Of a stretch of 64,000 bases of DNA, positions 19,759 through 48,606 are shown piece after piece. The stretch lies in the NCBI GenBank assembly GCA_030649305.1, contig JAUSFV010000006.1:32-64031 (forward strand), in the 5' to 3' direction. Source of the stretch: a bacterium. GTDB lineage: Bacteria > Patescibacteriota > Minisyncoccia > Sungbacterales > GWA2-42-14. The notes under the pieces are model-generated. The model made no database searches and was not told the origin of the DNA. It was given only the letters and a program-made list of their open reading frames with translations. The position numbers and the translations under genes are program-made. Each line of letters opens with the position of its first letter. Position 1 is the first letter of the stretch.

Positions 19759-20439
19759 TTATGTTTTCAGAAGATCCGTCCATGGCTTTGCAATATCTCC
19801 CGCTTTGCATTTCGGACATTCTTCTTTTGTATAGACCGGAATGTCAACCTGAACGGCTGCGTAGAAATAGGGGGCATATCTGGTCTCAACCTCTTTCACG
19901 AACGAAGTAGTGCCTTTCGCGAATACCGCCCGAGCCACAACCGTGCCGCCCAGCCCCTCCACAAATGACGGAAGACGTTGACCAACGCATCGCCCCTGCG
20001 AGGATACGGTATTAAAAACAAATACCTTATCACCCGACTTGATTTCACCCTCAACCAACACATCTCCGAAACGACCAGTATCCTTATAATCCCACAGGGC
20101 ATACCGAATCCGTTTACCCAGAGGAGATTTTCCGTAGTCCGCGAACTCTTTGATGATGGTATTGGTGCCAGGTTCATTCGGCCCGAACACCACATCATAC
20201 CCGATCCGACGCGGAATAGCCCAACGAAACCAATCGGTCACAATCCACCGAACAAACCGCTCATGTTCTGCAATCGGTCGTGGGGTGAAAAAATGCGTAA
20301 GGTGCGCACCATCGGGGTCTGCGGGATATTGCACATGCGCATCAAAAAAAAAGGTATACGGCATGCCGAGCATCTGCTTTATTTGCGATAACGGAAACGA
20401 ATCGGAAACAATGGCGATATGTTCGTTATATTTTCTCAT
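19759..20439 (-). CDS. Type I phosphoribosyltransferase-fold protein (PyrE-like, atypical PRPP loop)
   Basis: VFVFNTVSSQGRC in place of VVDDVxTTG; C-terminal ECPKC; 4-bp overlap with the FAH gene. Confidence 0.7.
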   Translation of the reverse strand: MRKYNEHIAIVSDSFPLSQIKQMLGMPYTFFFDAHVQYPADPDGAHLTHFFTPRPIAEHERFVRWIVTDWFRWAIPRRIGYDVVFGPNEPGTNTIIKEFADYGKSPLGKRIRYALWDYKDTGRFGDVLVEGEIKSGDKVFVFNTVSSQGRCVGQRLPSFVEGLGGTVVARAVFAKGTTSFVKEVETRYAPYFYAAVQVDIPVYTKEECPKCKAGDIAKPWTDLLKT

Positions 20440-21326
20440 GGGTTAAGTCTTCGCGGATCGGGCATCGTAACAAAAGCAACCTCGTTTTCCAAAACTCCAA
20501 GCGCTCCCGCATCCATACGAATACTATCGCCTTCCTGCAACCACGGATATTTTGCAGGCTCAATCTCTTGACCAGTTACCGAGTCAATACGCGCGGCAAA
20601 CTCGGCAATACACCCATTCCCGATGGTACCGGATGCGAGCAGATCTCCCTTCTCAAATCCCTGATTCATCCTGCCATACCACGCAATAACTTGCGCGAAA
20701 CTCCAACACTTCTTCGCGCCGGTTTTCGGGTCATCAAAATAAATGGAACGAAAATTATCCTCACAGCGAAGATCCCATGACACATCTCTCCAATGCTTCA
20801 CGAAAAGCCGCATGTGAATATAGGGAACGCCGTTTTCATCAAAATCAAAGTTGGATGCCGGAACCATCCATGGTCCAAAACTTTTTTCAGCAATACCCTT
20901 GGATGGCGCTACGGAAAGGCGCATCGCCATATCTGACGGCTGAAAGTCGCGCGCGCTCGTATCGTTAAATATGGTGAAAAATGCGTCTCTGGTTACAAAT
21001 TCAATCGCCTCACGCTCGTCCTTGGTTTCAAACGGGTACGGAAAATAAAGACAAATTTCGAATTCATAATCGGCCTTCGTGACAAACGAAGGAAAAATAA
21101 TTGCATCGCCGTTGCCTTTTATTTTGCGCTTTTGTAAATGCGCATCATAGCCATAGGGGCGTTCATACCATTCATCCGGAAAACGCTCGCCGCGCCTCCC
21201 GCGAATTTGTTCCACATGCTTCCGAAAACCAATCATATCGCGAAGCCGCAACGACGATTCTTCGCGCACAACTTCCGCCGCATCATGATACTTTCTACAG
21301 GAATGTCTCACGCTTATCCTCCACAC
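20436..21326 (-). CDS. Fumarylacetoacetate hydrolase family protein
   Basis: EWYERP, DYEFE, FNDTSARDFQ, FGPW, GDLLASGT. Confidence 0.88.
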   Translation of the reverse strand: MWRISVRHSCRKYHDAAEVVREESSLRLRDMIGFRKHVEQIRGRRGERFPDEWYERPYGYDAHLQKRKIKGNGDAIIFPSFVTKADYEFEICLYFPYPFETKDEREAIEFVTRDAFFTIFNDTSARDFQPSDMAMRLSVAPSKGIAEKSFGPWMVPASNFDFDENGVPYIHMRLFVKHWRDVSWDLRCEDNFRSIYFDDPKTGAKKCWSFAQVIAWYGRMNQGFEKGDLLASGTIGNGCIAEFAARIDSVTGQEIEPAKYPWLQEGDSIRMDAGALGVLENEVAFVTMPDPRRLNP

Positions 21327-21418
21327 AAGATGTCAAACAACTTACGAAATTTATACCATACTCAAATAAAAAACGCAAGAAAAAACCGCCCCGACCGTAG
21401 TCGGAGCGATTCATTGAT

Positions 21419-22633
21419 TTACTTTTTTTCTTTTTGAATCTCCCGCCACTGCCTATACCATGAAATTTCGTAATCCTTGATTTCGCATCCCTCTGCGGCG
21501 GGAAGAACCACGAGAGACGATTTCGTCTCAAGCATAATCGCAACCTGGTCAAGCCACGGGAGATTCTCCGGCTTCGGCGGATCTTCCGTACGCTGTTTAT
21601 CAAGCGCGCGGATATCCGGACCATGATAGGTTCCCGGCGGATGCAAGGTGATACACCCGTCCTGAATCTCGGGACGCACGTTGTAACCACGATGATTAAA
21701 GAGAAGCTCAGTCACATAATTCTGATGAGGATACGGAAGAGAATGCCCCCACCGAGGCAAAAACGCCTGAACGGACGCGCCCTCGTCTTCTGTCACGAAA
21801 ATCGTGAGTGCTTTCGGATCAAGATGAAAATCGGCCGAGGAAAGCGCGCGCAAATCTTTCAGATGCAAAACAAACGGATACAAATCCCCTTCCCATGCGA
21901 CTGCCGTAAACGGAGAAAATGGATACCAAAGACACGCCTCACGACCCACATGCTTCTTTACCCGAACAAAATGGTAGGGGCCGCGAAAGATATCTGCGAG
22001 AGGCACCGGTTCGGCAATCTCAAAAGCGGCGGGCGAAAAAGGATATCCGTCAACCCAATAATGCGAGGGGCGCATGATGCGGCTTGAACATTCATACAGT
22101 AAAATAAATGCGTCCCGCTCTTCAAGAAACGCGTACGTAACGCCACGCGGAATGAAAAAGAAATCCCCCTTTTCATAAGAAAGCAAACCAAAATCAGTAA
22201 AAATCTTCCCGTGTCCCCTATGCACAAAACCAAGCGTGTATGCGCCCTCATGCCGATAGATGTTATGCGCGTCATGGCGCCCGTTGAAAAGAGAGACGGC
22301 AATATCGTCCCCCACATATAACCCCCGGGGGAATTCGAGCGAATGAAGATCGTGAGATATTTTTTCGAGATCAAACGCGCGTCGTTCTAGTTTCATATTC
22401 TCCTGTTGCACAAGCAAGGAAGCCCGTGATAGAGAATCGGACTTTCGAGAATATTCGGATTGATAAACCACGCTTGGAGAATTCTCGCAAATTATCTCTG
22501 CCCCAAACTCGAGTTTATAGTTATACAAACCCTTCGGCGCGCGGCCGTTGAGCGGAAACGTAATTTTATCTTCGTATCCCTTGCGCACGCGCTTCTGATA
22601 AGGAAAGCCCGCCATAACCGGCGCGTTTTTCAT
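21419..22633 (-). CDS. hmgA: Homogentisate 1,2-dioxygenase
   Basis: TDFGLL, IPRGVTY, VAWEGDLYP, PYPHQNYVTELLF, TLHPPGTYHGP (H/E/H iron ligands); GGAGG RBS. Confidence 0.85.
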   Translation of the reverse strand: MKNAPVMAGFPYQKRVRKGYEDKITFPLNGRAPKGLYNYKLEFGAEIICENSPSVVYQSEYSRKSDSLSRASLLVQQENMKLERRAFDLEKISHDLHSLEFPRGLYVGDDIAVSLFNGRHDAHNIYRHEGAYTLGFVHRGHGKIFTDFGLLSYEKGDFFFIPRGVTYAFLEERDAFILLYECSSRIMRPSHYWVDGYPFSPAAFEIAEPVPLADIFRGPYHFVRVKKHVGREACLWYPFSPFTAVAWEGDLYPFVLHLKDLRALSSADFHLDPKALTIFVTEDEGASVQAFLPRWGHSLPYPHQNYVTELLFNHRGYNVRPEIQDGCITLHPPGTYHGPDIRALDKQRTEDPPKPENLPWLDQVAIMLETKSSLVVLPAAEGCEIKDYEISWYRQWREIQKEKK

Positions 22634-22774
22634 TCGCCTCCTCCTTCCAAAATTGTCAGTGAGCCACAAACTTTATTTAACAAAAATTTTAAATTTTGTC
22701 AATATAGACAAAAAACATCCCGCGGGGCACAAATATGATAATGAGAACCTTGCCAATCAAAAAAGGAGGCGTAC

Positions 22775-23614
22775 GTGAAAATCAAAAAACAGAATCTGAC
22801 ATTTGATCATATCGCTACGGTCAACGGCGCGAACGACGGATCGCTTGAGAGAACGGTGAGCCTTTTTAAGCTCCTCGGCTTTACCTCAAATATGTATGAT
22901 CGCGCAAAGGGTGTCGGAGAAGACCGTCCCGACGGAACTAAGATGCGTACCATCGTAGTCGCGCGGGACCATGTAAAAATTGCGCTCATGGAAGGGATGG
23001 ACGGGCGGAGTACGGACGGCAAACCCATTGCCTCGCAAATCACCGAATACTTTAGGCGGTTTGGTGTATGCGTCCAGCATATCGCCATTCGCTGTAATGA
23101 CCTTCAGGCGCTCGTGCAAGAATTACATAAGCGCGGCATTCGCTTCATCACGCAATACGAAAACGGAAAGCCGCAAATTCTCGTAAGCGAAGACGAGGAA
23201 GAAGGAACAGTTCTGCAATGTTTCACGTTTCCGGTTGAAGGAACATTCTTTTTTGAACTCAAACAGGTTATCAAAAAAAGAGGCGCAAAAAATATCCAAG
23301 AATTCAGGGATGCGAACGTGAAAGGACTCTGGTCAAGCATCAAGGAAGCCATTGACCAGGGCTGGCTTTTCAACGTCAATATCCGCGGTGAAAAAATAAA
23401 ATCAACCCGCGCCTACTCTCATCCCGAACTTGCGGCGTATATCAAAAAATTAGTTGCGGGAAATCCTTTGTGGGAGAGCGAGGTTGAATATATAACGCGC
23501 GTGGCTGTAGAGAAAACGAAACATGAGATGCTTAATGCGGGAACACTTATCAAGAAAGAAAATCGTCTTGAACTTCCCCTGCCACCCGTGAAAAACAAAA
23601 TCAAAGGCGGGTAA
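22775..23614 (+). CDS. 4-hydroxyphenylpyruvate dioxygenase-like VOC protein (catalytic domain only)
   Basis: FDHIA, VQHIAI, LQCFT, FFFELKQ, FRDANVKGLWSSI; GTG start with AGGAGG. Confidence 0.8.
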   Translation: MKIKKQNLTFDHIATVNGANDGSLERTVSLFKLLGFTSNMYDRAKGVGEDRPDGTKMRTIVVARDHVKIALMEGMDGRSTDGKPIASQITEYFRRFGVCVQHIAIRCNDLQALVQELHKRGIRFITQYENGKPQILVSEDEEEGTVLQCFTFPVEGTFFFELKQVIKKRGAKNIQEFRDANVKGLWSSIKEAIDQGWLFNVNIRGEKIKSTRAYSHPELAAYIKKLVAGNPLWESEVEYITRVAVEKTKHEMLNAGTLIKKENRLELPLPPVKNKIKGG

Positions 23615-35840: not shown

Positions 35841-36119
35841 CCAAAAACCCCGACGGACAACCGACGGGGGTTTTTATTTTTCTATTTCTATTGAAGTCGG
35901 ACTTCAATAGAAACTCCAACAAATCTCCCTCCTCCCCACAAAAATCGTTTTACGATACGCCCCTAGCATTTGGTATATTCTTTTTGAGACCATGAGGCGG
36001 CAATGCAACACGATGCTCTAATAAAAATGTAGCTATATTTGCGATAGCAAATATAGCTACATTTTTCTAAAACAACCAAACAAAAAAGGCGTTTCTCTGA
36101 CGCCCTTCCAAATTCCGAT

Positions 36120-36239
36120 ATGTTCTTTCGAGACCATGAGGAGGCAATCCAGCCCGGTCTCCGACCGCAGTCGGAGTGGATTACCGACGACTGAACGAAG
36201 TAGGGCGCCCGGCCGAGCGAGCGTGTCGAGAAAGAACAT
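36120..36239 (+). repeat. Structured dispersed element, copy B
   Basis: ATGTTCTTTCGAGAC...GTCGAGAAAGAACAT; internal GGTCTCCGACCGCAGTCGGAG. Confidence 0.7.
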
Positions 36240-36252
36240 GGCGAAATCTACA

Positions 36253-37359
36253 CTATTTCTTCCGACGGAGAAACGCCGGCACCGAATCCCACTCTGACTC
36301 TTCCTCCTGTGCGGGTTTCACCGCTCCATTCATGGGCTTCACCGGAGACGCTATGCCGTTCGTCGCGGGCTTGCGCAATTCGGGTGCCACCGCGCGCGCG
36401 CCATTCCCGTTAAATCCTGTTGCAATAACCGTAATTTTAATTTCGCCTTTTTTCAGGCGCTCATCATGCACCGCGCCGAAAATCAACTTCGCGTTCGTAT
36501 CAACAGATTCAGTAATAATTTTCGCGGCTTCATTAATCTCCCACATGGTCAAATCCGGACCGCCTGATACGTTAAAAAGCACTCCGCGGGCGCCGTTGAT
36601 GGAAATATCAAGCAGGGGCGAGCTGATTGCAGCCTGTGCCGCCTGCATATGCCGGTTCTCGCCCGACGCAATGCCAACCCCCATCAAAGCGCTTCCCGTA
36701 TCCTCCATCACCGCGCGCACATCCGCAAAATCAACATTCACCAACCCCGGCATCGTAATCAAATCTGAAATTCCGCGAACGGCATGTTGTAACACCTCAT
36801 CGCAAATTCTGAACGCAGCAAGAAGCGGCGTATTCCGCTCAATCATATTTAAAATCCGATCATTCGGAATCGTAATTAAAGCGTCCACCTTGTCTTTTAA
36901 TCTCGCCCAACCCTCCTCGGCAATTTTTCCTCTTTGATTTCCTTCAAAGGCAAAGGGCTTTGTCACAACCGCAACCGTTAAAGCACCCGATTCTTTCGCG
37001 GCCTCCGCGACAATGGGTGCCGCACCCGACCCTGTTCCTCCTCCAAGTCCGCATGTAATAAAAACCATGTCAGAGCCCTTCAGCGCCTCGTGAATTTCGT
37101 CGCGGTTTTCTTCCGCCGCCTGCCGCCCGATTTCGGCATTCATCCCCGCCCCCAACCCTTTCGTCAGATTTTTTCCAATGTGGATTTTGCTGGTCGCTTT
37201 ATTGTGATGCAATGCCTGCGCATCCGTATTAATCGCAATAAAATTCACGCCGTGAATTTTGGCGTCCATCATACGGGTGATGGCAGACCCACCGGATCCG
37301 CCCACGCCCACAACTTTTATTTTCGCGTAGGTTTCTATGTCGGGTTTTACTTGTGGCAT
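36253..37359 (-). CDS. ftsZ: Cell division protein FtsZ
   Basis: IKVVGVGGSG, GLGGGTGSG, NVDFADV, C-terminal VPAFLRRKK. Confidence 0.99.
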   Translation of the reverse strand: MPQVKPDIETYAKIKVVGVGGSGGSAITRMMDAKIHGVNFIAINTDAQALHHNKATSKIHIGKNLTKGLGAGMNAEIGRQAAEENRDEIHEALKGSDMVFITCGLGGGTGSGAAPIVAEAAKESGALTVAVVTKPFAFEGNQRGKIAEEGWARLKDKVDALITIPNDRILNMIERNTPLLAAFRICDEVLQHAVRGISDLITMPGLVNVDFADVRAVMEDTGSALMGVGIASGENRHMQAAQAAISSPLLDISINGARGVLFNVSGGPDLTMWEINEAAKIITESVDTNAKLIFGAVHDERLKKGEIKITVIATGFNGNGARAVAPELRKPATNGIASPVKPMNGAVKPAQEEESEWDSVPAFLRRKK

Positions 37360-37488
37360 TTCCTTAAGCTCATTAAGTAAATTAAGCACGTTAAGTAAAT
37401 TAAGTCCCGCATGCTTAACTTGCTTAATACGCCTAACTTGCTTAACTCGCTTATTTTAATGTATTCTTTCCCGAAATCCGAGGCAATA

Positions 37489-37517
37489 TTGACAAAAAAA
37501 ACGCCATATGCTACACT
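37489..37517 (+). promoter_or_regulatory. sigma70 promoter of prcB-prcA
   Basis: TTGACA-17 bp-TACACT with extended TG. Confidence 0.65.
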
Positions 37518-37574
37518 ACCCGTAACATACGGCTCTTCGAAAACCGAATAAAAACCCAACACCAGGAGGCAAAA

Positions 37575-38432
37575 ATGAATATTCCAGCAGAGTTTAGAAA
37601 CTTCTCACCATCTTCACTACTTGAAACACCCGAACTCCAAAACTTTATCAAAAATCGTCAAGCCGGACTGAATGAGATGCCTCGTGACATTCTTGAGAAA
37701 ATGGCGGGAATCATCCGCAGTTCCACCGTGCTCACGGGCATCACGTTTGATGGCGGGGTTATCGCGGGCGCCGATGGGCAGTCAACCGATACACGGGGAC
37801 TTGAAATCGCTGATGACCAAGCCCCGAAATTGCACCAGGTGGCGCCACATACCGTTATCGGCATGACGGGCTCGTCCGCCCAATGCGATGAACTAGCGCG
37901 AATCATTGAAGAGGTGCTACGCGTTGATGAAGCAATCAATCAATTCGCAGACACCCCCCTTACCACAGAAGGCACCGTAGGAAGAGTGTCTATGGTAGTC
38001 AGACAAAATCTTCCTCTCGTCGCCTACTATGGCCTTATCGCCATCCCCCTCCTTACCACCATCAACAAGGAAACCGGGGAAGGAAAGGTGTATCATTACG
38101 ATGCCGTGGGAGGATATTCTGACGCCACCGAAGGATTTTGGGCTGATGGTTGCGGGGGCCCGAATGCGAAAGGAATATTCCGAGGAAACACAAAAGATAT
38201 TGCGAAGGGACTTTCAAAAGACGCCGCCATCATGCTTACCGTACACGCGCTCGCAAAGACATGCCATGTCAATGCCGGATGCGGAGGTAAGCTCCTCGTA
38301 AAAGTCATCACCAAGCAAGACGGCATCGTTGATGTATCTCAGGACCGAATCGCGGAAATCTGCAAAGAACTCGGTCCGCGGGTGATCGGAACATATGGCC
38401 TTGGATACCCCTACGCAACCCCCAGGGAATAG
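37575..38432 (+). CDS. prcB: 20S proteasome beta subunit with propeptide
   Basis: ~50-aa propeptide, then T1VLTGITFDGGVIAGAD17, K33 equivalent, VRQNL, GLIAIPLL, YDAVGG; aligns by eye with actinobacterial PrcB. Confidence 0.88.
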   Translation: MNIPAEFRNFSPSSLLETPELQNFIKNRQAGLNEMPRDILEKMAGIIRSSTVLTGITFDGGVIAGADGQSTDTRGLEIADDQAPKLHQVAPHTVIGMTGSSAQCDELARIIEEVLRVDEAINQFADTPLTTEGTVGRVSMVVRQNLPLVAYYGLIAIPLLTTINKETGEGKVYHYDAVGGYSDATEGFWADGCGGPNAKGIFRGNTKDIAKGLSKDAAIMLTVHALAKTCHVNAGCGGKLLVKVITKQDGIVDVSQDRIAEICKELGPRVIGTYGLGYPYATPRE

Positions 38433-38444
38433 GAGGAAAAAATC

Positions 38445-39236
38445 ATGAGACTGTTCCCGGAAAGCGACTATCAATCAAAATCGAACCGAGACAGGTTCGA
38501 ATCGCTCAGAGGCATAATCGAAAATCAACCGCCCCTTGTAGCACTTGCGTATAAAGAAGGACTTTTATTCATGAATTTCGGCACACGACATGATTTCCGC
38601 CGAATTGCTCCGCTCAACGAAGGGAATACCTTAGTATTCGGAGGCGTTGGCAACCGAGGCGATATAAAGGATCTCCACACGAATGGATGGGTAAACCCGG
38701 CAATGCGCCGCCTCTATGCGTGCCTCCCCAGCAATTCAAAAGAGATATCGGGGCGCGTCATTAGCGACGGAATCGCGGATCTTATGCGTTCACGATTTAG
38801 CTTTGTATTCTCGGGACCTTTCATCGCCGAAATTTTCATTGCAGAAGTCGGAGAATCAAATAACGTTATCTACCATATCCAGACCGACGGAAACACATGT
38901 ACCCACGATGATTTCCTCGCGTTGGGAGCCAGAAACTACTGCGCCAATAATCCCCTCCGTTTAAGAGTCGTGAGAAGCGCTGTGGACTCAAGTGTGGGGA
39001 CACAAATCCAAGAAGCAAAGGAAAAAATTGAACTGTGCGCGATTGAACAATACCTTGAAGAGAATCCGCCAAACCCCTCTCAGAGCCTTGAAGAGGCGCT
39101 GAAACTCGGTGATGTTTTGAAAGAATTCTATGTCCGAGAAATCAGCGGAGAGGAAGATCCGGAAAAGACAAAGATGCCTGTTAGCTACAACATTCTCGAA
39201 AGAGGAAAGGGGCTCTTTGTCCATTCAGACAAATAA
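38445..39236 (+). CDS. prcA: 20S proteasome alpha subunit (divergent)
   Basis: RDRFESLRGII...LVALAYKEGLLF, FGGVG, ISGR, PFIAEIFIAEVG; directly downstream of prcB. Confidence 0.82.
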   Translation: MRLFPESDYQSKSNRDRFESLRGIIENQPPLVALAYKEGLLFMNFGTRHDFRRIAPLNEGNTLVFGGVGNRGDIKDLHTNGWVNPAMRRLYACLPSNSKEISGRVISDGIADLMRSRFSFVFSGPFIAEIFIAEVGESNNVIYHIQTDGNTCTHDDFLALGARNYCANNPLRLRVVRSAVDSSVGTQIQEAKEKIELCAIEQYLEENPPNPSQSLEEALKLGDVLKEFYVREISGEEDPEKTKMPVSYNILERGKGLFVHSDK

Positions 39237-39322
39237 TTTAAATGAAAAAGCCCATCCCATATGCGATGCATAGGGATGGGCTATTTATTTTGAGAATTTT
39301 ATCTTTATCACCTTATCTTTAT

Positions 39323-40063
39323 CTAAAAACGGGATTGCTCTTTGAGACCTTTCTTATCCGATTTCGCGCTCAATTCCGCCTTCGCTTTCTCTAAAAAGAA
39401 GTATGTCGCAAGGAGGTTTTCTTTATATTCCTCGTAGGTCGCGCTGTCGGCAAAACCATACTGCACGATTTCTTCCCCCTTCAGCAGGGTCGGCTTCTCC
39501 CGATTGCTTAAATCGGCGAGGTAGCGCGCCTTGTCAAAAGGCTTATCAGCGCGCGAACAAAAGGATGCAACGCGATCGGCAACATTCTGTATCATTTCCC
39601 GAGCACCCTCATCGTGTTCTTTTTTTGCTTTATCGAGTTCTTCCTGCGACGCATACTGATGTTCCGGAACGAATCTCGGAAACCCGAGCGCAAAAAAGGT
39701 ATCCGGCGTAACATACCGCTTCTCGCCTGCCGCAAACACCAGCTGGCCGAAGAGGGCTTGCGTGCCAATTGCAAACGTGTCAACCGGACGCGGAGAAGTT
39801 TTGATGGCTGATACAATCTGAAACGCGTCAAAAAGCGGCGCGTCCACCTGCTTGATCACAAGCTTTGTCCGAACAAAACCCTTCGGAACCACAATGCTCG
39901 GGGAAGCCAATGGCTCTGTCAGACCAAACCAATTCAGTCGGGTTACCAGAGAATTTGCAGAAGGATTCAAAACTGGCCCCACGGGAAACTGGAGTTCCGA
40001 ACCAAGTTCGGTAATCCAATAACCCTTCAAATCATCGAGCCAACTATCGCCCTGTCGCTCCAT
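39323..40063 (-). CDS. ClpP-fold protein lacking catalytic Ser and His (ClpR-like)
   Basis: AFQIVSAIK..PRPVDTFAIG.QALFG.LVFAAGEKRY...ALGFP...EEIVQYGFAD. Confidence 0.75.
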   Translation of the reverse strand: MERQGDSWLDDLKGYWITELGSELQFPVGPVLNPSANSLVTRLNWFGLTEPLASPSIVVPKGFVRTKLVIKQVDAPLFDAFQIVSAIKTSPRPVDTFAIGTQALFGQLVFAAGEKRYVTPDTFFALGFPRFVPEHQYASQEELDKAKKEHDEGAREMIQNVADRVASFCSRADKPFDKARYLADLSNREKPTLLKGEEIVQYGFADSATYEEYKENLLATYFFLEKAKAELSAKSDKKGLKEQSRF

Positions 40064-40083
40064 GTTTTCTTCCTCCTCTTTGA

Positions 40084-40803
40084 TTACTGCGACCGCCCCG
40101 GCTTCATATCCTTGATGGCGGGGGCACCCCACGATGTATACAACTTCTCAGCCATTCGAATACCCTCTTGTTCGCCCTTTGTCTCGGCCTGAAACATCGC
40201 TCGCATCAAGGCACCCAAGAAAATAGCCTTTTTCGTTTTCATGTCCGGTGCGCGTTCAATCATGGGCCACAAAATCCCTAACACGCGCGCAATAAGATTT
40301 GGATTATATTGCGTCCAAAATGCCGCCTTAATCTCTTCTTTGTCCCGAGAAGACAAACCGTGTAAAAATATTTCGTTTGCCTCCTCCATGGATACCGCGG
40401 GCCAAGAAAAGTAAGGAACCAAAGCGTCGTTCGTAATAATCTTATGCATTGCATAAAGTTGAGAACCCGCAACATGACTAAATGAATCAATTACGCCGAG
40501 TAATTCGTGTGCCGCATCTGAAACCGATGGCCGCTTCTGGTCAAGCGACACGATAACTGGTCGCAATACCAGATCAACCGCAGAACGATTTGCATCGGTA
40601 AACACATGAGCACTCGCATGATCCATGCGCCGTTCCGCATCAGACATCTCAACATTCGTCCAAAGATTCAAAAGAACGTTCTCAAAAAATGCGGAGCGCT
40701 CTTCCGAAGAAGACAGCTCACCAAGATGCTTGAGAATATCGCGCGAGCGCTCCCCCGCCGTATCATACGTTCCGTGAATAATTTCCTCGGCTCGATTTTT
40801 CAT
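40084..40803 (-). CDS. Hypothetical helical protein
   Basis: 239-aa ORF with GGGGAG RBS, co-oriented with the ClpP-like gene. Confidence 0.8.
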   Translation of the reverse strand: MKNRAEEIIHGTYDTAGERSRDILKHLGELSSSEERSAFFENVLLNLWTNVEMSDAERRMDHASAHVFTDANRSAVDLVLRPVIVSLDQKRPSVSDAAHELLGVIDSFSHVAGSQLYAMHKIITNDALVPYFSWPAVSMEEANEIFLHGLSSRDKEEIKAAFWTQYNPNLIARVLGILWPMIERAPDMKTKKAIFLGALMRAMFQAETKGEQEGIRMAEKLYTSWGAPAIKDMKPGRSQ

Positions 40804-40830
40804 TGTTCTCCCCCTTTTCTCCTTTGTGAG

Positions 40831-41310
40831 TTATGAATCCGGATTCGTTTCTTGTCTTCGTGTTGCTTCAAACATGCGCGGGTCTTCCTCGCGAAATTTC
40901 TCAAACAACTTCTGATATTGAGGTGTCTCCCGCATACGTTCAACATCGGGATACGCGCACATAACGCCTCGTTGCGGAGCAACATATCCCTCGCCCCCCA
41001 TGAGTCCGAGCACCGGATCTCGATCTTGATCAATGAGTATAATCGTATGCTGGCGTTCTTTGGTTTCTGGATTAAAACGCGTAATTTTTTCAAAATTACC
41101 GGAAGACCACGAATACTTATGAAAGGGGCACCGCTCACATGCCGAAAGGTCAATAATCCACCCAGGCGCTCCGTTGGTAATCTCTTTTGGACAAGGAATG
41201 CCAAGTGATGAGGTCGCATTATCAACCACCGAAATAGAAAGAGGGTCTTCACCATTTCTCGTATTGATGGCGCGCTCAAGCCGCCCGATCGCATCTACCA
41301 CATCAGCCAT
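40831..41310 (-). CDS. Hypothetical Cys-containing protein
   Basis: 159 aa; CP...CERCPFH...C; AAGGAG RBS. Confidence 0.75.
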   Translation of the reverse strand: MADVVDAIGRLERAINTRNGEDPLSISVVDNATSSLGIPCPKEITNGAPGWIIDLSACERCPFHKYSWSSGNFEKITRFNPETKERQHTIILIDQDRDPVLGLMGGEGYVAPQRGVMCAYPDVERMRETPQYQKLFEKFREEDPRMFEATRRQETNPDS

Positions 41311-41351
41311 TTTGTTTTCTCCTTTTCAAAGACCAGCCGGAAATTAAAAAG

Positions 41352-41424
41352 AGGGTAGTGTTTACGCGCCCAAATCTAATTCCCGCCTACGTGCTAGGAA
41401 TAGACTGGGGGTAACAACTACCCT
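41352..41424 (-). promoter_or_regulatory. Long leader hairpin followed by a U-run (attenuator or sRNA candidate)
   Basis: AGGGTAGT...ACTACCCT closing stem then CTTTTT; TTGACA-17-TACAAT promoter at 41458-41486. Confidence 0.5.
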
Positions 41425-41534
41425 TGCCCTTTTCTTTCCGCCTTGTAAGTTACCCGCATTGTAGCAAAACCGAAAAAATCTGTCAATAGTTCGCGGACAA
41501 ATAAAAAGGGGCTCAAAGCCCCTTGAAGATATAG

Positions 41535-43151
41535 CTATACTCCATCCGGAAAACGAACGCGTTGAAACGCCCCCGGATTCGGATCAAACGGATCCTCATC
41601 ATATTCGGTAACGACATCGGGCGACCAACCCCTTCCGGACTTAGGATAATATCTGAGATAATTCCAGCCCACTTCCATAAGATCCGCGTTCGTATGCCCC
41701 CGGAGTGCTGCAATCCTCTTATCCCGCGCTTCCGCGCGCGTTCCCGAAGGAGCATGATTTTTCGCGTGCAGAATCTCCGATTCCGAAACAATCAACGCGA
41801 CAAGCCCTTTTTGTACGAGTTTATAATACAGACCCTTATCGCGCCGCACATCATGAAAAAAATTATCAAAAAACTTCATACGGCCCCATGCATCCGTTTT
41901 GCTCGTAGTTCCGCTTTTCGTAATAATTTCAAGCGGGAGTATCGGAGCGCTTTCAAACGAATATCCGTTTCGTTCCATGTCGGGCAGAATCCAGTAATGC
42001 AATTTCGCGGCCCACCCGACGTAGGGCGCTAAAATTTCCGCGCATTCGAGGGGAGAGCGCGCCCGCTCAAACGCTTCAATCAAAAAAATATATTTTTGAA
42101 GGCCGTCCTCTTCCTCGTTGCTCCAGAGAACCGGGGAACCGCTCCGCGCCGCCTCCCGAAACAGCGATGCCTTGTACGCAAGAATCGGCTCAAGATACAG
42201 CTTCCGATGCAAACGTACCGCGTCATACTCCTCATTCTGAAAACGAAATGTTTGATGCTCGCTTCCCCACCACATAGTCCGTGTTTGCATGTATGCCAAT
42301 TCGCGCGAAAAGCGCCCCGAGTCTTTTTTATAATCCTCTTTGCGAAGCACCCGACCCTCAATCATGCGAAGCAGGATCCCGAGAATCACGTTGGGTACAT
42401 ACATCTGCCATTCGCACATTGATGAATCAAGACCGATAATCTGAAGGCGCCAGTACTCGCGGCGGTCCGCAAGCGGCTCATCGCACAAAAGCACCATGGG
42501 GCGCATTGGTGCCGTGGATGATGTTCCCGAAAGCCGGTCCACAAACGGAGCGCGCTGGGAGAGCGAATACAAAAGACGCCCCCCATTGGTAACCCATACC
42601 AGCCCCGACCCCGTCATCCACGAGCTTGAAAAAAGAAACGGACCGAGAATGGGTAATGCCTCATCATAGGACACTTCGCGAATATTCAGGGGAAGATTAT
42701 AGTGATTCCCCCACGAAACATAGTGCGTACGAGAACGATAATCCCGGGTGTCCGGAGACCAGCGTTCGGAATTCATGTTGGTATTATTTTTAAAAAACGT
42801 ACAGCCCCCGAAACGCGCGAATTTGGCACGAATGCGCGATGCGGGCGATCCCTGTATATTCAGCGTTGCGGCAATATCCTCAAGAATACGCTCGCCCGCT
42901 TTTCCCCATGCAACAAGGTCGTAGACACTTCCGCATTCGGGAGTCGAAATTTCAAAATGATTTCCGGTATCCCAATATGCCCGTCCGCCGTTTGCGAGAA
43001 AATCTGATTTTACGGGAAGAATCCGCGCCCCATCCCTCATCTGCGGCCGCAAGGATTCCACGGCGTCATGAAGTTTAGCCCAATTATCCCCAAAAATTTC
43101 CATCGGAAAAAAAGCGGTTTCGTTCTCCATACCCCAGATACGCTTTTGCAT
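41535..43151 (-). CDS. pafA: Pup--protein ligase
   Basis: MQKRIWGMENE, FLANGGRAYWDTGNHFEISTPEC, AGERILED, FKNNT, SQRA, WAAK. Confidence 0.88.
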   Translation of the reverse strand: MQKRIWGMENETAFFPMEIFGDNWAKLHDAVESLRPQMRDGARILPVKSDFLANGGRAYWDTGNHFEISTPECGSVYDLVAWGKAGERILEDIAATLNIQGSPASRIRAKFARFGGCTFFKNNTNMNSERWSPDTRDYRSRTHYVSWGNHYNLPLNIREVSYDEALPILGPFLFSSSWMTGSGLVWVTNGGRLLYSLSQRAPFVDRLSGTSSTAPMRPMVLLCDEPLADRREYWRLQIIGLDSSMCEWQMYVPNVILGILLRMIEGRVLRKEDYKKDSGRFSRELAYMQTRTMWWGSEHQTFRFQNEEYDAVRLHRKLYLEPILAYKASLFREAARSGSPVLWSNEEEDGLQKYIFLIEAFERARSPLECAEILAPYVGWAAKLHYWILPDMERNGYSFESAPILPLEIITKSGTTSKTDAWGRMKFFDNFFHDVRRDKGLYYKLVQKGLVALIVSESEILHAKNHAPSGTRAEARDKRIAALRGHTNADLMEVGWNYLRYYPKSGRGWSPDVVTEYDEDPFDPNPGAFQRVRFPDGV

Positions 43152-43229
43152 GCAATCTCCTCTTTGATAAAGAACCAACCTGCTTTCACAATATCAGAAT
43201 CGGCGCATAAGGGAAATATTGACAAAAAA

Positions 43230-43258
43230 AATAATGAGGCCTAAGAGGCCTCATTACT
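43230..43258 (-). terminator. Intrinsic terminator after pup
   Basis: TAATGAGGCC-TAAGA-GGCCTCATTA hairpin; U-run on the minus strand. Confidence 0.7.
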
Positions 43259-43305
43259 ATAGAAAAATCTGTTGCGTATTATTAGTAATTAGTTATCTGT
43301 TCGGG

Positions 43306-43521
43306 TTATTCTCCGCCCCGCTGAACGTAGCTCTTCACAAATTCTTCAGCGTTTTCTTCCAAAACTTCATCAATTTCATCCACTAAATCATCCAAATCCT
43401 TCTTTAATTTTTCGGTCTTTTTCTTTTTCTCTTCCTCTTTCGTATCGTCTTTTTTTGGAGTTTCCTCAACCTCTTTTTTCTCTTCGGGTTTTTCTTGTTT
43501 CTTCTTTTGTTCCTGACTCAT
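43306..43521 (-). CDS. pup: Prokaryotic ubiquitin-like protein Pup (C-terminal GGE)
   Basis: DLDDLVDEIDEVLEENAEEFVKSYVQRGGE; charged, disordered N-terminus; GGAGG RBS. Confidence 0.97.
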   Translation of the reverse strand: MSQEQKKKQEKPEEKKEVEETPKKDDTKEEEKKKKTEKLKKDLDDLVDEIDEVLEENAEEFVKSYVQRGGE

Positions 43522-43607
43522 GTTTTTTCCTCCTCCCTAAATCAATTTTGTTATACAAAATTAATCGGGCGACCAATCGGCAAAGCCGATTGGTTTAGCC
43601 TTTCTTG

Positions 43608-45257
43608 CTATTCATCATATTCAGGATACGGAGTACGATGGACAGAATAAATGCTTCCGCATTTTTTCGCAATACCCGCGCCAAGCGCACGCCGCAAAAA
43701 TTCATGCCGATCCGCGCCGAGAAGAAGTGGTGCATACTCCGCTTCGGTCATCAGAGGATTTGAACAATCAATTTCATAATATGCGTTTTCCTCCGGAACC
43801 CACACGTCTATCTCCGCCCAATGCCATCCCTGCACGTGCGGCTCAAACAAACGCTGTACCGCGACCTGAAAGCCGGAGCGCGTCGGCGGGGATTCAGAGA
43901 CCGCGCGCGCGATATCGGCATCGCTAATAATCCGATGCTCCCGATGCTTTTCTTGAACGAATTTTTGAAAAAATATGCTTTTTGCGGGGTCGATATTTCC
44001 ATAGCTCCGGTCAAGGCTGATTGCTTTATGCGAACAGAAAGAATCAATCTTGCCGCGCGCCATCAATTCCTCTATGACACCGCGTTTCGTCACCCAATCC
44101 AACATCCCGATACAATCACCGGAATTTCTCCGAAGTTTTTTAACAACATCAAGCCCGAGCGCCACCGCTTCATCATACTCGGGTTCCCGAATACCATACT
44201 CCGCACAATACCTCCCCATAAGCGTTATATATTCTTCAAGAAGATCAAGGGGTAAACAGGATTCTTTGCGATTTCGCATAGAAATTTTTTCTTGAAACGC
44301 GAGGTCCCGCGAAATCTTCCAAAACGCTCTCACGGGATCCGTCAGTATAAACTGACCGCCGAGAAATTCGTCCTCAAGCATCTTTAAATGAATTTCGGTA
44401 AGGGCAATCGTAAGAAAATAGGCGGTCTCACACATGTTTTGATCTGCTGTAATCACATGCAGACGGCGATACAGCGCTGCATCCGCATACGGCACGTCGC
44501 GCGTATTCATTAGGGGCCGTTTGCTTAGTGTGGGATATGTCTCCCCTAGTCCCATCGTACCGATGCCCGCCAACTCCGAAAAAAAATCCGCGCGCTGAGA
44601 AATCTGGAAGTCGCACCACGGGAGCCCCGTCACAAGCCGATTATGGCTTCCCACCTTTCCTTGGCCGTTAAAAATCTGACGGAGTACGAGCCACGGAATC
44701 GTACGTTCAATCAAGGCGCCCCACGGCACGACACGCCGCATAAGATAATTATCATGATGCGCATAGCTTACCGAAAAATCGGCGAGCAGCTCAGGAGATA
44801 CATCAAGAAACGTTTCCCCGCGGCCCAGCGCAAAACCATAATTATTTTTTGATAACAAAAAACCGGTTCCCGCTTCGCGATGGCGTTCTGTCAAAAACCG
44901 TATGATGCGGTCAGCAGCTTCATAGTGCGCGAGTTTCTCTTTGGGTGTGCGGCAAAGGGCGATTGAGAGTTCCGGATGCGCCCCGTCCACATACAATCGC
45001 GCGCCATTCGCAAGAAGAATATTTGTTTCGCGCCACGAGCGTTCCGTAAAATAGGTATGGCTATGATCTTCCCCGTCCGCAAGGCGCGGCCGCGAATCCC
45101 ACAAAGAAAAACTTCCGCCCGAAAGCCACTCGGGCCTGATACGCGACACAAACTGCCACGCGAGATCAGCGGGACTCTGTGAAGAATCCGGCGAACTGAT
45201 CCCATATTCTATTTCGCTTCCCCCATATTTTGGTATCGAGCGCGATTCACGGGGCAT
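43608..45257 (-). CDS. dop: Depupylase/deamidase Dop
   Basis: GSEIEYGI, LANGARLYVDGAHPELS, GQGKVG, FQISQRADFF, NTRD, YRRLHVI, LDWVTK. Confidence 0.9.
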   Translation of the reverse strand: MPRESRSIPKYGGSEIEYGISSPDSSQSPADLAWQFVSRIRPEWLSGGSFSLWDSRPRLADGEDHSHTYFTERSWRETNILLANGARLYVDGAHPELSIALCRTPKEKLAHYEAADRIIRFLTERHREAGTGFLLSKNNYGFALGRGETFLDVSPELLADFSVSYAHHDNYLMRRVVPWGALIERTIPWLVLRQIFNGQGKVGSHNRLVTGLPWCDFQISQRADFFSELAGIGTMGLGETYPTLSKRPLMNTRDVPYADAALYRRLHVITADQNMCETAYFLTIALTEIHLKMLEDEFLGGQFILTDPVRAFWKISRDLAFQEKISMRNRKESCLPLDLLEEYITLMGRYCAEYGIREPEYDEAVALGLDVVKKLRRNSGDCIGMLDWVTKRGVIEELMARGKIDSFCSHKAISLDRSYGNIDPAKSIFFQKFVQEKHREHRIISDADIARAVSESPPTRSGFQVAVQRLFEPHVQGWHWAEIDVWVPEENAYYEIDCSNPLMTEAEYAPLLLGADRHEFLRRALGAGIAKKCGSIYSVHRTPYPEYDE

Positions 45258-45371
45258 ATTTCCTCCCCTTTCTTTATATGTATATATGTAAAGCAACTTA
45301 TTTCATGCTATCACGGCCACTCCAATGAAAAAAGCCCACGACCTCGGTCGGGGGCTTTTGGATGTAATGAG

Positions 45372-47351
45372 TTATAGGTAATGTCCGACCGAAACTGTCT
45401 CAACTTTCTTATCCTCCCCTTCTCGGGGAAGAATACGAACATTCACGATTCGGCCCTTCTGCTTGCCGATAACACTGGCCCACTCTTGGGGGTTCGTAGT
45501 GTTAGGCAAGTCTTCGTTCTCTTGGTATTCTTTAATCGTCGCGTCACGAAAATCAGAGAATGTCAGCCCCTTCTTGCCTCCCGCAATCAATCGTTTGACC
45601 GCGCTTTTCTTTGCGCGAGTCATAATGGACTCAATGATAGCGCCGGACATAAAATGCCGGAAGTGCATGGTTTCCTGTTTCCCATCCGCATAGGTAAGTT
45701 CGACAAATCTGCTCCATTTTTTAGAATCAGGGGTAAGCCCCCAAATTTCAATCGCGGTCCGCTGAATAAAATATTTTGCCATATCCTCCAAAAGAGGGGT
45801 GCCGTTTGTATCACGACGAATAGGAAACTTCATGATTTTGAGGTCAACATCATTTCGCGCATCATTCGTGGGGTCGCAATCGTAAAACTTACGCGGATGT
45901 CCGTTACGGTCTGCCGGAATATAGTTTCCCTCTGTATCATAGAATTTCGGATTCACATAATCAGAACCAACAAGACAAAATGGAAGTTCCGGCACGCAAT
46001 AAATCTTGAGAATTTCCTGAATGCCGCGAAAATCAGGACGGTCAATTTTAATTTTTACGTCAAATCGTCCGGGCCGCAGAACCGCAGGGTCAATCAAATC
46101 CTGCCGGTTGGATGCACCAATCACGATGACGTTTTTCAAACCCTCAACACCATCAATCTCCGCCAAAAACTGCGGTACGATGGTTGACTCAACGTCCGAA
46201 GAAATTCCCGAACCGCGCGTCCGAAACAAACTGTCCATTTCGTCAAAGAAAATAACGACGGGAGAGCCGTCTCCTGCCTTCTCACGCGCCCGCGTAAAAA
46301 TATCACGAATTTTACGCTCGGTTTCACCAACCCACTTCGTAAGAAGTTCCGGACCTTTGATATTAATAAAGTAACCCCGAACGGATTGTCCCGTTTTTGC
46401 GGCAATCTGTTCGGCCAGAGAATTCGCAACCGCCTTTGCGATAAGTGTTTTACCGCATCCCGGAGGACCATACAACAGTACGCCCTTGGGCGGTGCCAGT
46501 TTGTGTTCCTTGAAATGTTCCGCGTAGAGATAGGGAAGTTCAAGCGCGTCGCGAATTTCTTCAATCTGTGCCCCAAGTCCGCCGATGTGCGCGTAGGTAA
46601 TATCCGGCACCTCCTCCAGGAGGAGGTCTTCGGTATCACTCTTTGGAAGCTTCTCAAGTACGAGACCTGAGCGCGCGTCAAATAACAGATGGTCGCCCTC
46701 TTTCAGAACGACGTCTTTCAAAGAATCCGCAATCTCAACAACCCGCTCCTCATCCTGACGCACTTCAATCTGCACACGCCCATCATTCAGGCGGCTTTTC
46801 ATCGTGACTACTTCGCCCTGCCCGTCAAAGCCAAGCGCCTCAACCACATTGAAGGCCTCATTCAAAATAAGTTCCTGGCCCCTCCGAAGAGACCTGCCGT
46901 CAAGAGAAGGATGCAGATTAACTTTCAACTTTCTACCCGCCGCATAAATAACGGCTGTGCCGTCTTCATTCAACAAAGAAAAAATACCGTAAGAATTAGG
47001 AGGCGCTGAAAGCTTTTCCACTATCTCGCGGAGTTCCACGATCTCTTTTTTCACTTCCTGCAAGATCTCGGTGAGTTTCTGGTTTTGAGCAAAAGCCGTT
47101 ATATTTTGTTCAAGCAACGGCTTTTCCAATCTTGCTAATTCTTGCTCCTGCGCCACAATCTGTTCGCGAATCCGCTCGGCCTTTTCCAAAGTATCGCCCC
47201 GGGCATCCGCGCGTTTATGCAGTCTTCTTAATTCCGCGTGAAGTTCTTGAAGTCGTATATGAATCGCGTGGAGCTTCGCGCCAAACGCGTCAAGCGATTG
47301 ATTGCGCGGATCTTCATTCGGCATACGCCACCTCATTTCGTCTGTCAACAA
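45372..47351 (-). CDS. arc: Proteasome-associated AAA+ ATPase ARC/Mpa (start may be a downstream ATG)
   Basis: N-terminal coiled coil, OB domains, GPPGCGKT, KGPELLTKWVGETER, FFDEMD, SGISSDVE, NEDLPNTTNP, C-terminal GHYL. Confidence 0.96.
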   Translation of the reverse strand: MLTDEMRWRMPNEDPRNQSLDAFGAKLHAIHIRLQELHAELRRLHKRADARGDTLEKAERIREQIVAQEQELARLEKPLLEQNITAFAQNQKLTEILQEVKKEIVELREIVEKLSAPPNSYGIFSLLNEDGTAVIYAAGRKLKVNLHPSLDGRSLRRGQELILNEAFNVVEALGFDGQGEVVTMKSRLNDGRVQIEVRQDEERVVEIADSLKDVVLKEGDHLLFDARSGLVLEKLPKSDTEDLLLEEVPDITYAHIGGLGAQIEEIRDALELPYLYAEHFKEHKLAPPKGVLLYGPPGCGKTLIAKAVANSLAEQIAAKTGQSVRGYFINIKGPELLTKWVGETERKIRDIFTRAREKAGDGSPVVIFFDEMDSLFRTRGSGISSDVESTIVPQFLAEIDGVEGLKNVIVIGASNRQDLIDPAVLRPGRFDVKIKIDRPDFRGIQEILKIYCVPELPFCLVGSDYVNPKFYDTEGNYIPADRNGHPRKFYDCDPTNDARNDVDLKIMKFPIRRDTNGTPLLEDMAKYFIQRTAIEIWGLTPDSKKWSRFVELTYADGKQETMHFRHFMSGAIIESIMTRAKKSAVKRLIAGGKKGLTFSDFRDATIKEYQENEDLPNTTNPQEWASVIGKQKGRIVNVRILPREGEDKKVETVSVGHYL

Positions 47352-47430
47352 GCTTTTTTTAATGTATCACAGCAAATTCATACGCGCAACTAATTGAAAA
47401 AACGGCTTATTTGTGATATCTTTGGGCAAG

Positions 47431-47502
47431 GCCCCCGTAGCTCAACGGATAGAGCAATCCCGTCCTAAGGGAGAGATGGGAGTTCAATTCTTCCCGGGGG
47501 CA
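47431..47502 (+). tRNA. tRNA-Arg(CCT)
   Basis: GCCCCCG acceptor / CGGGGGC-A, D arm GCTCAACGGATAGAGC, anticodon loop GTCCTAA, T loop TTCAATT; no encoded CCA. Confidence 0.88.
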
Positions 47503-47532
47503 TTGATATGCTATAATACTTGTATTCACATC

Positions 47533-48606
47533 ATGGCTACATCTTACGAACAACAAATTATAGATGCCATAAAAAAAGCCCTCCCCGCGGTGGTCAGTAT
47601 TGTGGTAAGTAAAGACCTTGAAGATATTAAGAAGAGTAACCCCTTCGGATATTTTCAGCTTGGCCAGGAAGCTCCCGCAGGAGAAGAAATTCCGGAATCG
47701 GCACTTGATGAGCTCCCGCGCACGAAAGAAGGAAAAATCAAAGTCGGCGGCGGCTCCGGCTTTATTGTTTCACACGACGGACTCATTTTGACAAATAAAC
47801 ACGTCGTAATGGACCCAAGCGCTGAATACAGCATTATTACCGCAACTGATGACCTCTATCCCGCGCGCGTACTCGCGCGCGACCCGATTAATGATGTCGC
47901 AATTCTCAAAATTGAAGCGGAAAAAGAAACCTTGCCCGTCATTCCCATCGGCGACTCAAATACGGTAGAACTTGGACAAAGCGTCATTACCATCGGAACG
48001 GCTCTCGGCGAATTCCAGAATACCGTCTCCACCGGCATTGTATCAGGCCTCTCGCGATTTATCACCGCCGTCACGGATTTGATGGGCCATCAGGAACGCC
48101 TGCGCGGCCTTATTCAAACGGATGCCGCGATTAACCCGGGAAACTCTGGGGGGCCCTTAGTGAATTTAAAGGGTGAGGCCATTGGCATTAATTCGGCTGT
48201 GGTATTTGGCGCGCAAAACATCGGCTTTGCCATTCCCATCAATAAAGTAAAAGAAGACCTTGATGCCTTTCGTAAATTCGGAAAAATCTCAAAACCCTTT
48301 CTTGGCATCCGCTATCTTTTGATCAACAAGGCCATCCAGAAAAAATTCAACCTGCCCGTTGATGCAGGCGCCATGATCCTGCGCGAGCACGGACCGGATT
48401 CGCACGGCATCGTTCCGGGAAGCCCCGCCGAAAAAGCTGGCCTCAAGGACTACGATATTATCCTCGCGTGCAACGGCAAGCTCCTCTCAGAAAAAACGAC
48501 CCTGGAAGATATCCTGGATTCGGTTGCCATCGGCGACACGGCTTCGCTCACCATCCTCCGAAACGGAAAGGAGGCTGAATTAAAAATGATGGTAGGAGAG
48601 CGGTAA
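47533..48606 (+). CDS. HtrA/DegP-like serine protease with PDZ domain
   Basis: GSGF, TNKHVV, DVAILKI, TDAAINPGNSGGPL; no obvious signal peptide. Confidence 0.95.
   Translation: MATSYEQQIIDAIKKALPAVVSIVVSKDLEDIKKSNPFGYFQLGQEAPAGEEIPESALDELPRTKEGKIKVGGGSGFIVSHDGLILTNKHVVMDPSAEYSIITATDDLYPARVLARDPINDVAILKIEAEKETLPVIPIGDSNTVELGQSVITIGTALGEFQNTVSTGIVSGLSRFITAVTDLMGHQERLRGLIQTDAAINPGNSGGPLVNLKGEAIGINSAVVFGAQNIGFAIPINKVKEDLDAFRKFGKISKPFLGIRYLLINKAIQKKFNLPVDAGAMILREHGPDSHGIVPGSPAEKAGLKDYDIILACNGKLLSEKTTLEDILDSVAIGDTASLTILRNGKEAELKMMVGER

Follow-up and report, generated by a model that had tools for sequence, protein, structure and literature searches.

Can a bacterium belonging to the Candidate Phyla Radiation (CPR) tag proteins with Pup and degrade them in a proteasome, and if so, from where were the components of that system obtained? 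This question is raised by a locus in a 64,000-nucleotide stretch of contig JAUSFV010000006.1 (assembly GCA_030649305.1), referred to here as the window; the genome is denoted G000. Six open reading frames (ORFs) identified as arc, dop, pup, pafA, prcB and prcA were found at the positions and on the strands listed in Table 1. It is apparent that their order is not the canonical arc-dop-pup-prcB-prcA-pafA: prcBA is situated on the plus strand, beyond three additional ORFs, and is convergent with arc-dop-pup-pafA on the minus strand. The data presented below favour, though only modestly, the hypothesis that these genes specify a functional system for tagging with Pup and degradation, the parts of which differ in their history.

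Components of the tagging module

Profile searches were performed with all six proteins. As had been proposed in a first-pass annotation of the window, made from sequence alone, each protein matched the expected family, with the cut-offs reached to varying degrees. ARC scored 644.5 against TIGR03689 (cut-off 504.75). Both OB domains were found (PF17758 and PF16450), the Walker A and B motifs, pore loops and second region of homology were intact, and the protein ends with the C-terminal tail GHYL. A lineage-specific insert of approximately 45–50 amino acids is common to the ARC proteins of the window, G001, P0002 and P0004; it was observed in none of 80 metagenome ARC loci, among the matches listed.

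The Pup protein scored 76.4 against PF05639 and 61.8 against TIGR03687 (cut-off 41.45). Since it passed both Pup models, ends in YVQRGGE and lacks an R[ST]G[EQ] terminus, its assignment as a Pup-type rather than a UBact-type tag was upheld. The GGE terminus had also been taken to mean that deamidation is unnecessary. This is consistent with the known chemistry; the feature is an ordinary one, however, as 24 of 61 named non-CPR Pup tails end in QRGGE.

Dop and PafA both matched PF03136 (scores of 258 and 165.5, respectively) and were distinguished by the Dop-loop together with their relative TIGR scores. Dop scored higher with TIGR03688 (216; cut-off 492) than with TIGR03686 (197), while PafA scored higher with TIGR03686 (130; cut-off 551) than with TIGR03688 (101). 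Dop aligned through the loop with the solved Dop from Acidothermus (E value 6e-45), with the motif variants YVDGAHPE and HDNY. PafA retains both N-terminal Glu residues, the catalytic Asp position and, in the sequencing runs described below, the equivalent of Arg193. In M. smegmatis, PafA loses its activity when that Arg is mutated (PMC7947786). The assembly codes for Cys at this position (base 42485), whereas runs X1 and X2 both code for Arg, and a PafA inactivated by this substitution was, therefore, ruled out. Five of the seven other differences in pafA were silent, among those listed (40 of 545).

A third gene of the ligase family was found in G000, at C36:25286-26881. It is an orphan, in a genome that holds one pup and one arc. 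Ligase paralogues were also observed elsewhere, as three tandem genes in G003 and as pairs in G002 and G005 (L103, L106 and L114); G002 yielded four ligase matches and no Pup match.

The 20S subunits

PrcB matched PF00227 with a score of 61.5. Its predicted model (predicted local distance difference test score, pLDDT, of 82) superposed on M. tuberculosis PrcB with a Z score of 30.4 and a root-mean-square deviation (rmsd) of 1.8 over 214 residues. In this structural alignment, residue 51 coincides with residue 1 of the mature chains, identifying Thr51 as Thr1; Asp67, Lys85 and Gly99 correspond to Asp17, Lys33 and Gly47. Thr1, Asp17 and Lys33 are invariant in four members of this beta family at 31–44% identity, and Gly47 likewise showed no variation in the alignments. 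One sequence alignment of 212 rows shifts the Thr1 register by one residue, suggesting Ser50 as the nucleophile; that assignment was ruled out by the structural register.

The residues that support Thr1 differ. Cys193, Asn233 and Cys236 occupy the positions of Ser129, Asp166 and Ser169, which, according to PMC4792962, bond to the Thr1 amine; D166N alone is described there as lowering activity in yeast by ~60%, and D166A as blocking archaeal autolysis. Because Cys, Asn and Cys replace residues that tune the Thr1 amine, slower or thiol-sensitive cutting would be expected. The triple recurred in P0122 (45% identical) and P0123 (39% identical) and was absent from the remainder of the 212 rows, which had been picked largely by likeness to the window beta; both Cys residues are common to P0200 and G681. 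Ser129/Asp166/Thr169 are retained by each of the 10 named betas from outside the CPR that the tree contains. A word-index protein search for Cys-type relatives returned only the query, metagenome and viral scans confirmed none, and the GCG motif was present in none of 39 metagenome betas among the matches listed. With all three supporting residues replaced together, this beta family could serve as a naturally occurring test case for the two-triad mechanism described in the literature.

The window beta is only ~23% identical to canonical betas. The free tree placed it among long-branch sequences from the class, and its grouping with canonical betas was not rejected by the approximately unbiased (AU) test (p 0.316), so that, as far as the sequences go, either origin is compatible with these results.

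PrcA is highly diverged, with a Pfam score of 17.5 (cut-off 22.4) and an E value of 2e-7 with TIGR03691, below the cut-off. Its predicted model (pLDDT 60) aligned with M. tuberculosis PrcA over 195 residues (Z score 19.5, rmsd 3.3), residues 166-263 being poorly modelled. The predicted fold is of the alpha type, with an N-terminal helix, and the gene lies directly 3′ of prcB.

A second prcB-prcA pair was found in G000, at C33:22081-23578. Its beta retains Gly-Thr and Ser129 and lacks Asp166. The two betas of G000 are ~21% identical, and their common origin was neither demonstrated nor rejected (p 0.31). G018 has a close orthologue of the C33 pair, and the gene adjoining it there looks similar as well. 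In G000, two 20S pairs that differ greatly can be compared against a single ARC. On the same contig (C33:22081-25123, L179), the pair faces a gene for a 506-aa protein resembling the second ClpB ATPase domain, with a long insert; an 873-aa protein encoded at C33:25294-27915 looks, by eye, like a large phosphoesterase-like protein. The first-pass annotation had overlooked this second pair, the additional ligase-family gene on C36, the altered active site of the beta and the frequency of such loci in the class (see below).

Origin of ARC and Pup

The nearest named relatives of ARC are from the Methylomirabilota rather than from the Actinobacteria or Nitrospirae, of which the first-pass annotation took such loci to be typical. 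The best 80 genome matches of ARC derive from Methylomirabilota, Myxococcota/Deltaproteobacteria, Poribacteria and a few others, with no CPR genome named among them, and the organism names among 120 ARC protein matches are mostly Methylomirabilota/NC10. The window ARC is 62% identical to a Methylomirabilota ARC and 42–55% identical to those of three relatives. Similarly, 30 of the last 33 residues of Pup are identical to those of a Methylomirabilota Pup.

In the ARC tree, the window and G001 sequences are sister to the Methylomirabilis rows (Shimodaira-Hasegawa-like approximate likelihood ratio test, SH-aLRT, 88–97). A single clade containing all of the ARCs of the order was rejected (AU p 2e-6) in a test of 34 rows that left out G013, G038, G051 and one distant paralogue. 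Judged from these sequences, the placement of the window ARC with the Methylomirabilis rows is probable, and it is likely that ARC was acquired from Methylomirabilota at least twice. If the Methylomirabilota signal holds genome-wide, it would name a candidate host for this uncultured order. The history of Dop appears to be different: it falls into one clade together with six Dops from its order (SH-aLRT 100), and both Dop and PafA are long branches grouped with sequences from their own order.

The ARC of G021 (L126:6424-8271) is 83% identical to a Methylomirabilia ARC and adjoins a very long-branch Dop at the usual site of the order. From its sequence, it looks like a recent single-gene replacement.

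Distribution and gene order in related genomes

Pup ligases were found in seven of 351 genomes in the sample of the phylum and in 16 of 41 in the sample of relatives. Within the order, Pup was detected in 10 of 62 genomes, alpha in three and beta in four (one weak); the counts for the relatives and for the order include G000. Weak beta matches in G032 and G036 were discounted as more distant N-terminal nucleophile (Ntn)-like proteins with no alpha neighbour. Among the ten Pup-bearing genomes of the order, 20S genes were found only in G000, which has two pairs. The class sample gave betas in 27 and ligases in 30 of 401 genomes, frequencies that argue for the system as an established, fast-evolving part of this group of Patescibacteria.

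Of the 26 class genomes with a beta besides G000, 19 were examined, on 20 stretches in all. In G495, G584, G433, G513 (in which arc is split) and G679, arc is accompanied by a pair of ligase genes, both 20S subunit genes and a candidate tag. Since these five genomes carry apparently complete loci, the complete system is recurrent in the CPR rather than unique to the window. Other arrangements were also seen. In G051 (L137:4156-7578), prcB and prcA are followed by a short tag ending in RQGE, without a Pup model match, and an ATPase. Lone betas stand head-to-head with htrA in G628, G663 and G480 (L220, L225 and L228), with no alpha detected nearby, and beta-alpha pairs unaccompanied by ARC or ligase on the stretch examined were seen in several further class genomes.

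In four members of the order (G003, G021, G023 and G026), the module reads arc-dop-pup-pafA, with pafA following immediately on pup, and no 20S genes were found in them. Among 28 stretches examined, 12 of the 15 relatives that bear ligases have one that shares its stretch with GT2, recG or ftsH; in G000, GT2, recG and ftsH lie on C29 and C35, where no Pup genes accompany them. The operons of the relatives, the synteny and the Dop clade indicate that the tagging module has long been resident in the order and has moved. The more general proposal that the system was acquired from outside and remodelled was supported.

Assembly support and host genome

The assembly was compared with three of the six sequencing runs listed for it, of which X1 is perhaps its source and X2 derives from an independent study. 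A contig of 6,741 nt from X2 covers positions 36117-42857 (ftsZ to pafA) with 11 differences and flat depth. A chimera was thereby ruled out for this stretch. To the right of 42857, the X2 pieces are near-contiguous, with small gaps at 42858-42863 and 43494-43564, and none spans the whole block. The X3 population is ~6–8% divergent; one of its pieces bridges prcA and the ClpP-like gene, and prcA is gap-free across the 625 bases covered in this third population, at ~6% divergence. No stop codon or frameshift was found in the nine genes, indels of the other populations falling outside the corrected frames. All of the frames are intact, are accompanied by Shine-Dalgarno sites and match the independent population.

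The G+C content of the block matches that of the genome, and its codon usage is within 1.8 standard deviations of the genome mean. These values, together with the grouping of Dop, ruled out a recent transfer of the whole block. The G000 genome measures 1.02 Mb, with completeness of 94.7% and contamination of 2.7%; the genomes listed as its kin are of 0.5–1.2 Mb. Neither uL30 (PF00327) nor uL1 (PF00687) was found, while control families were matched in 13 and 14 of 14 genomes. Absence of both proteins is described in PMC9297842 as a mark of a Parcubacteria subgroup. The small genome and this pattern of ribosomal protein absence identify the host as a uL1- and uL30-lacking member of the Patescibacteria, in keeping with the CPR-like host first proposed.

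Transcription signals and other features of the region

The signal scan suggests one transcription unit for prcBA and another for the three extra genes (Table 1). Regarding the claim that prcBA has its own promoter, a candidate was indeed located upstream of prcB; promoter-like sites, however, are no more numerous in the region than in shuffled sequences (15 versus 14.3 ± 3.7). A 13-bp hairpin at 37503-37533 overlaps the -10 box of the candidate. Shine-Dalgarno sites favoured the downstream starts of arc (47324), dop (45257), pafA (43151) and the ClpP-like gene (40063).

Table 1. Features of the Pup-proteasome region, in window coordinates
Feature	Position	Strand	Evidence
Candidate sigma-70-like promoter of prcBA	37489..37517	+	10/12, with extended -10
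prcB, 20S beta subunit, 50-residue propeptide	37575..38432	+	PF00227; predicted model; alignments
prcA, highly diverged 20S alpha subunit	38445..39236	+	TIGR03691, below cut-off; predicted model
Hairpin between convergent units, possible two-way terminator	39250..39281	.	By eye; absent from hairpin scan list
ClpP-fold protein, 246 aa	39323..40063	-	PF00574 (E 0.005); Atlas match; alignment with canonical ClpP of the genome
239-aa ORF, no family	40084..40803	-	Pfam/NCBIfam negative
159-aa ORF, no family	40831..41310	-	Pfam/NCBIfam negative; Shine-Dalgarno site present
Candidate promoter of the three extra genes	41458..41486	-	11/12, with extended -10; best site of the region
Terminator-like hairpin 3′ of pafA	41506..41524	-	Signal scan
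pafA, Pup ligase, diverged, no Dop-loop	41535..43151	-	PF03136; TIGR scores; motif table
Terminator-like hairpin (13-bp stem) in the pup-pafA intergenic region	43230..43258	-	Signal scan
pup, 71 aa, ends YVQRGGE	43306..43521	-	PF05639 and TIGR03687, above cut-off
dop, depupylase with Dop-loop	43608..45257	-	PF03136; TIGR03688; alignment to solved Dop
arc/mpa, proteasomal ATPase, ends GHYL	45372..47324	-	TIGR03689, above cut-off
tRNA-Arg(CCT), divergent from arc, right block boundary	47431..47502	+	–

The first of the three extra genes encodes a protein with a ClpP fold (Atlas features 0.93; template modelling scores of 0.57/0.72 to ClpP, both from predicted models), whose nearest Atlas clusters are mostly viral. 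Aligned with the canonical ClpP of the genome (C40), it shows Leu in place of the catalytic Ser, and the His and Asp positions align poorly; from this alignment, it is probably a pseudo-protease. No relatives were found in the protein search or among 40 relatives searched with that query, and none that were convincing among solved structures. The 239-aa ORF had a best Atlas score of 0.84, a sub-threshold lead only, and neither it nor the 159-aa ORF had a Pfam or NCBIfam match. As the three genes were not found in the loci of relatives examined (for metagenome loci, among the matches listed), they are treated here as an insertion with no demonstrated link to the Pup system.

Elsewhere in the window, a TTAAG-based 14-mer occurs three times (two direct copies, one inverted) at 37373-37427, upstream of ftsZ, and seven times genome-wide. 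The listed start of the ORF at 47413-48606 overlaps tRNA-Arg; the probable HtrA start is at 47533, giving the 357-aa form present in the protein collection. A cluster at 20436-23614 contains FAA hydrolase, homogentisate dioxygenase-like and glyoxalase/dioxygenase genes, possibly for aromatic amino-acid catabolism, which would be unusual for the CPR.

Proposed mechanism and alternative explanations

In the scheme that we infer, the order inherited an arc-dop-pup-pafA module, mostly without a proteasome. In the lineage of the window, this module would have left its usual chromosomal site, and ARC (and probably Pup) would have been obtained, or refreshed, from a Methylomirabilis-like donor. The module would now stand beside a fast-evolved prcBA pair, with the other pair on C33. 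PafA would join the terminal Glu of Pup to target lysines at the expense of ATP, and Dop would remove it. ARC would bind Pup, unfold the target and dock on an alpha ring via its GHYL tail. The beta ring would then cut by means of Thr1-Lys33-Asp17; either or both of the 20S particles may degrade the target, that of the window with altered kinetics.

Several observations weigh against this scheme. PafA, Dop, PrcB and PrcA all score far below the equivalog cut-offs, and the PafA motifs HENY and RLH are replaced by HYNL and RLQ. The Asn at the Asp166 position of PrcB weakens the case for an active beta ring. Gly(-1) is Ser50 in the window PrcB and Thr, Lys or Arg in its relatives, so self-processing of the beta subunit is uncertain. 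The alpha-pocket Lys is Arg in PrcA. With regard to the proposed donor, all of the trees are quick searches with long branches, and the Actinomycetota are represented in the ARC tree by Hakubella-type rows only. When the single-clade test for ARC was confined to members of the Dop clade, p was 0.013, rising to 0.126 (not rejected) without G003; nor was a position of the window ARC outside the Methylomirabilales group rejected (p 0.066). Lastly, neither alpha nor beta was found in the nine other Pup-bearing genomes of the order (83–100% complete), although very diverged copies could escape detection, and in view of these nine relatives the tag may work mainly without a proteasome.

That last point is the core of a rival explanation, which we regard as rather unlikely: pupylation would be mainly proteasome-independent, as in Corynebacterium, with ARC unfolding or disassembling its targets or handing them on to another protease. 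The 20S pair of the window would then have low activity, act independently of Pup or serve a structural role, and would lie near the operon by coincidence. The single-contig G026 is among the nine genomes without detected 20S genes, and in most of the 19 class genomes examined neither ARC nor a ligase accompanies the beta on the stretch. Furthermore, prcBA forms a separate unit behind three unrelated genes, and both the second triad and Gly(-1) of the window beta are altered. On the other hand, members of the beta family show no variation at Thr1, Asp17 or Lys33, and the GHYL tail of ARC has been kept. In PMC3511204, proteasome-less actinobacteria are described as having lost the docking tail of the ATPase, and a tail of the ARC type opens the 20S gate according to PMC8142254. 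The argument from the tail is itself weakened because proteasome-less kin also retain it: all eight ARCs examined from Pup-bearing relatives without a proteasome end in YL, and seven of the eight in G[QH]YL.

It had been proposed initially that prcBA was excised, inverted and given a promoter; in this version, a single canonical operon would first have been acquired, and prcBA would have diverged quickly in place. The canonical order is standard in the named donor-type loci and, among the matches listed, occurs in 30 of the 80 metagenome loci, the majority of the others being cut short; in addition, pup adjoins pafA in the window, and a grouping of its beta with canonical betas is permitted by the AU test. 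The identical pup-pafA junction in the four relatives lacking 20S genes argues against excision, however, as do the position of the beta in the free tree and the disparity between the similarities of ARC and of beta to their canonical counterparts. Excision and inversion of prcBA are, therefore, unsupported, and we consider this history improbable. More improbable still is a reading of the block as a relic in decay that retains little function. The low profile scores, the long branches, the apparently inactive ClpP fold nearby and the frequent loss of the system across the order would all agree with decay. Nine genes free of stops and frameshifts would not, nor would the recurrence of the three active-site substitutions in proteins of 39–45% identity or the preponderance of silent differences among those listed for pafA.

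The hypothesis favoured here, a working system of mixed ancestry, could be extended to a bolder and unlikely one. The window beta would represent a new active-site type, Thr1-Lys33-Asp17 with Cys129/Asn166/Cys169, possibly capable of redox-switchable cutting through the thiols on either side of the Thr1 amine, and repeated capture of ARC and Pup from Methylomirabilota would be the genetic footprint of the host of these organisms, the tail being kept, even in genomes without detected 20S genes, so that tagging stays compatible with the proteasome of that host.

Comparison with known systems

Reviews describe bacterial proteasomes as confined to Actinobacteria and Nitrospirae, with sporadic exceptions, and no description of a Pup-proteasome system in the CPR was found in the literature searched, which was mostly without subscription journals. 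The locus resembles the actinobacterial and Nitrospirae systems in its six components, the Pup tail, the domains and GxYL tail of ARC and Thr1-Lys33-Asp17, and its best solved matches are the 20S particles of M. tuberculosis and Rhodococcus and the Dop of Acidothermus. It differs from those systems in its Patescibacterial host, the separate convergent prcBA unit, the Cys129/Asn166/Cys169 triple, the absence of Gly(-1), the two 20S pairs and the three ligase-family genes, and in having four of six proteins below the equivalog cut-offs. The loci of Methylomirabilota, Myxococcota, Poribacteria and Nitrospirota (L001-L080) share the YVQRGG[EQ]-type tag and contain the closest named ARC and Pup proteins. 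Unlike the window, they mostly keep the canonical order, and their betas have Ser129/Asp166/Thr169.

In pupylation of the Corynebacterium type, pup directly precedes pafA, according to PMC3511204, as it does here and in four relatives. By contrast, the ARC tail is kept in the window and in the relatives examined, and 20S genes are present in the window. UBact loci, reportedly described by Lehmann et al. in 2017, are said to have the same enzyme set and to occur in candidate phyla including Parcubacteria. A UBact-like order, arc-ligase-ligase-beta-alpha-tag, was observed in the class genomes G495, G584, G433 and G513. The window tag differs in passing the Pup models, in lying between dop and pafA and in ending with QRGGE rather than R[ST]G[EQ], which we take to be the defining terminus of UBact.

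Two 20S gene sets within one genome are not without parallel. Rhodococcus erythropolis is said to have a two-operon proteasome, and PMC3511204 describes a duplicated system in Leptospirillum ferrooxidans. Compared with those organisms, the two betas of G000 are far apart in sequence, both have altered second triads, and the two pairs are accompanied by one pup and one arc.

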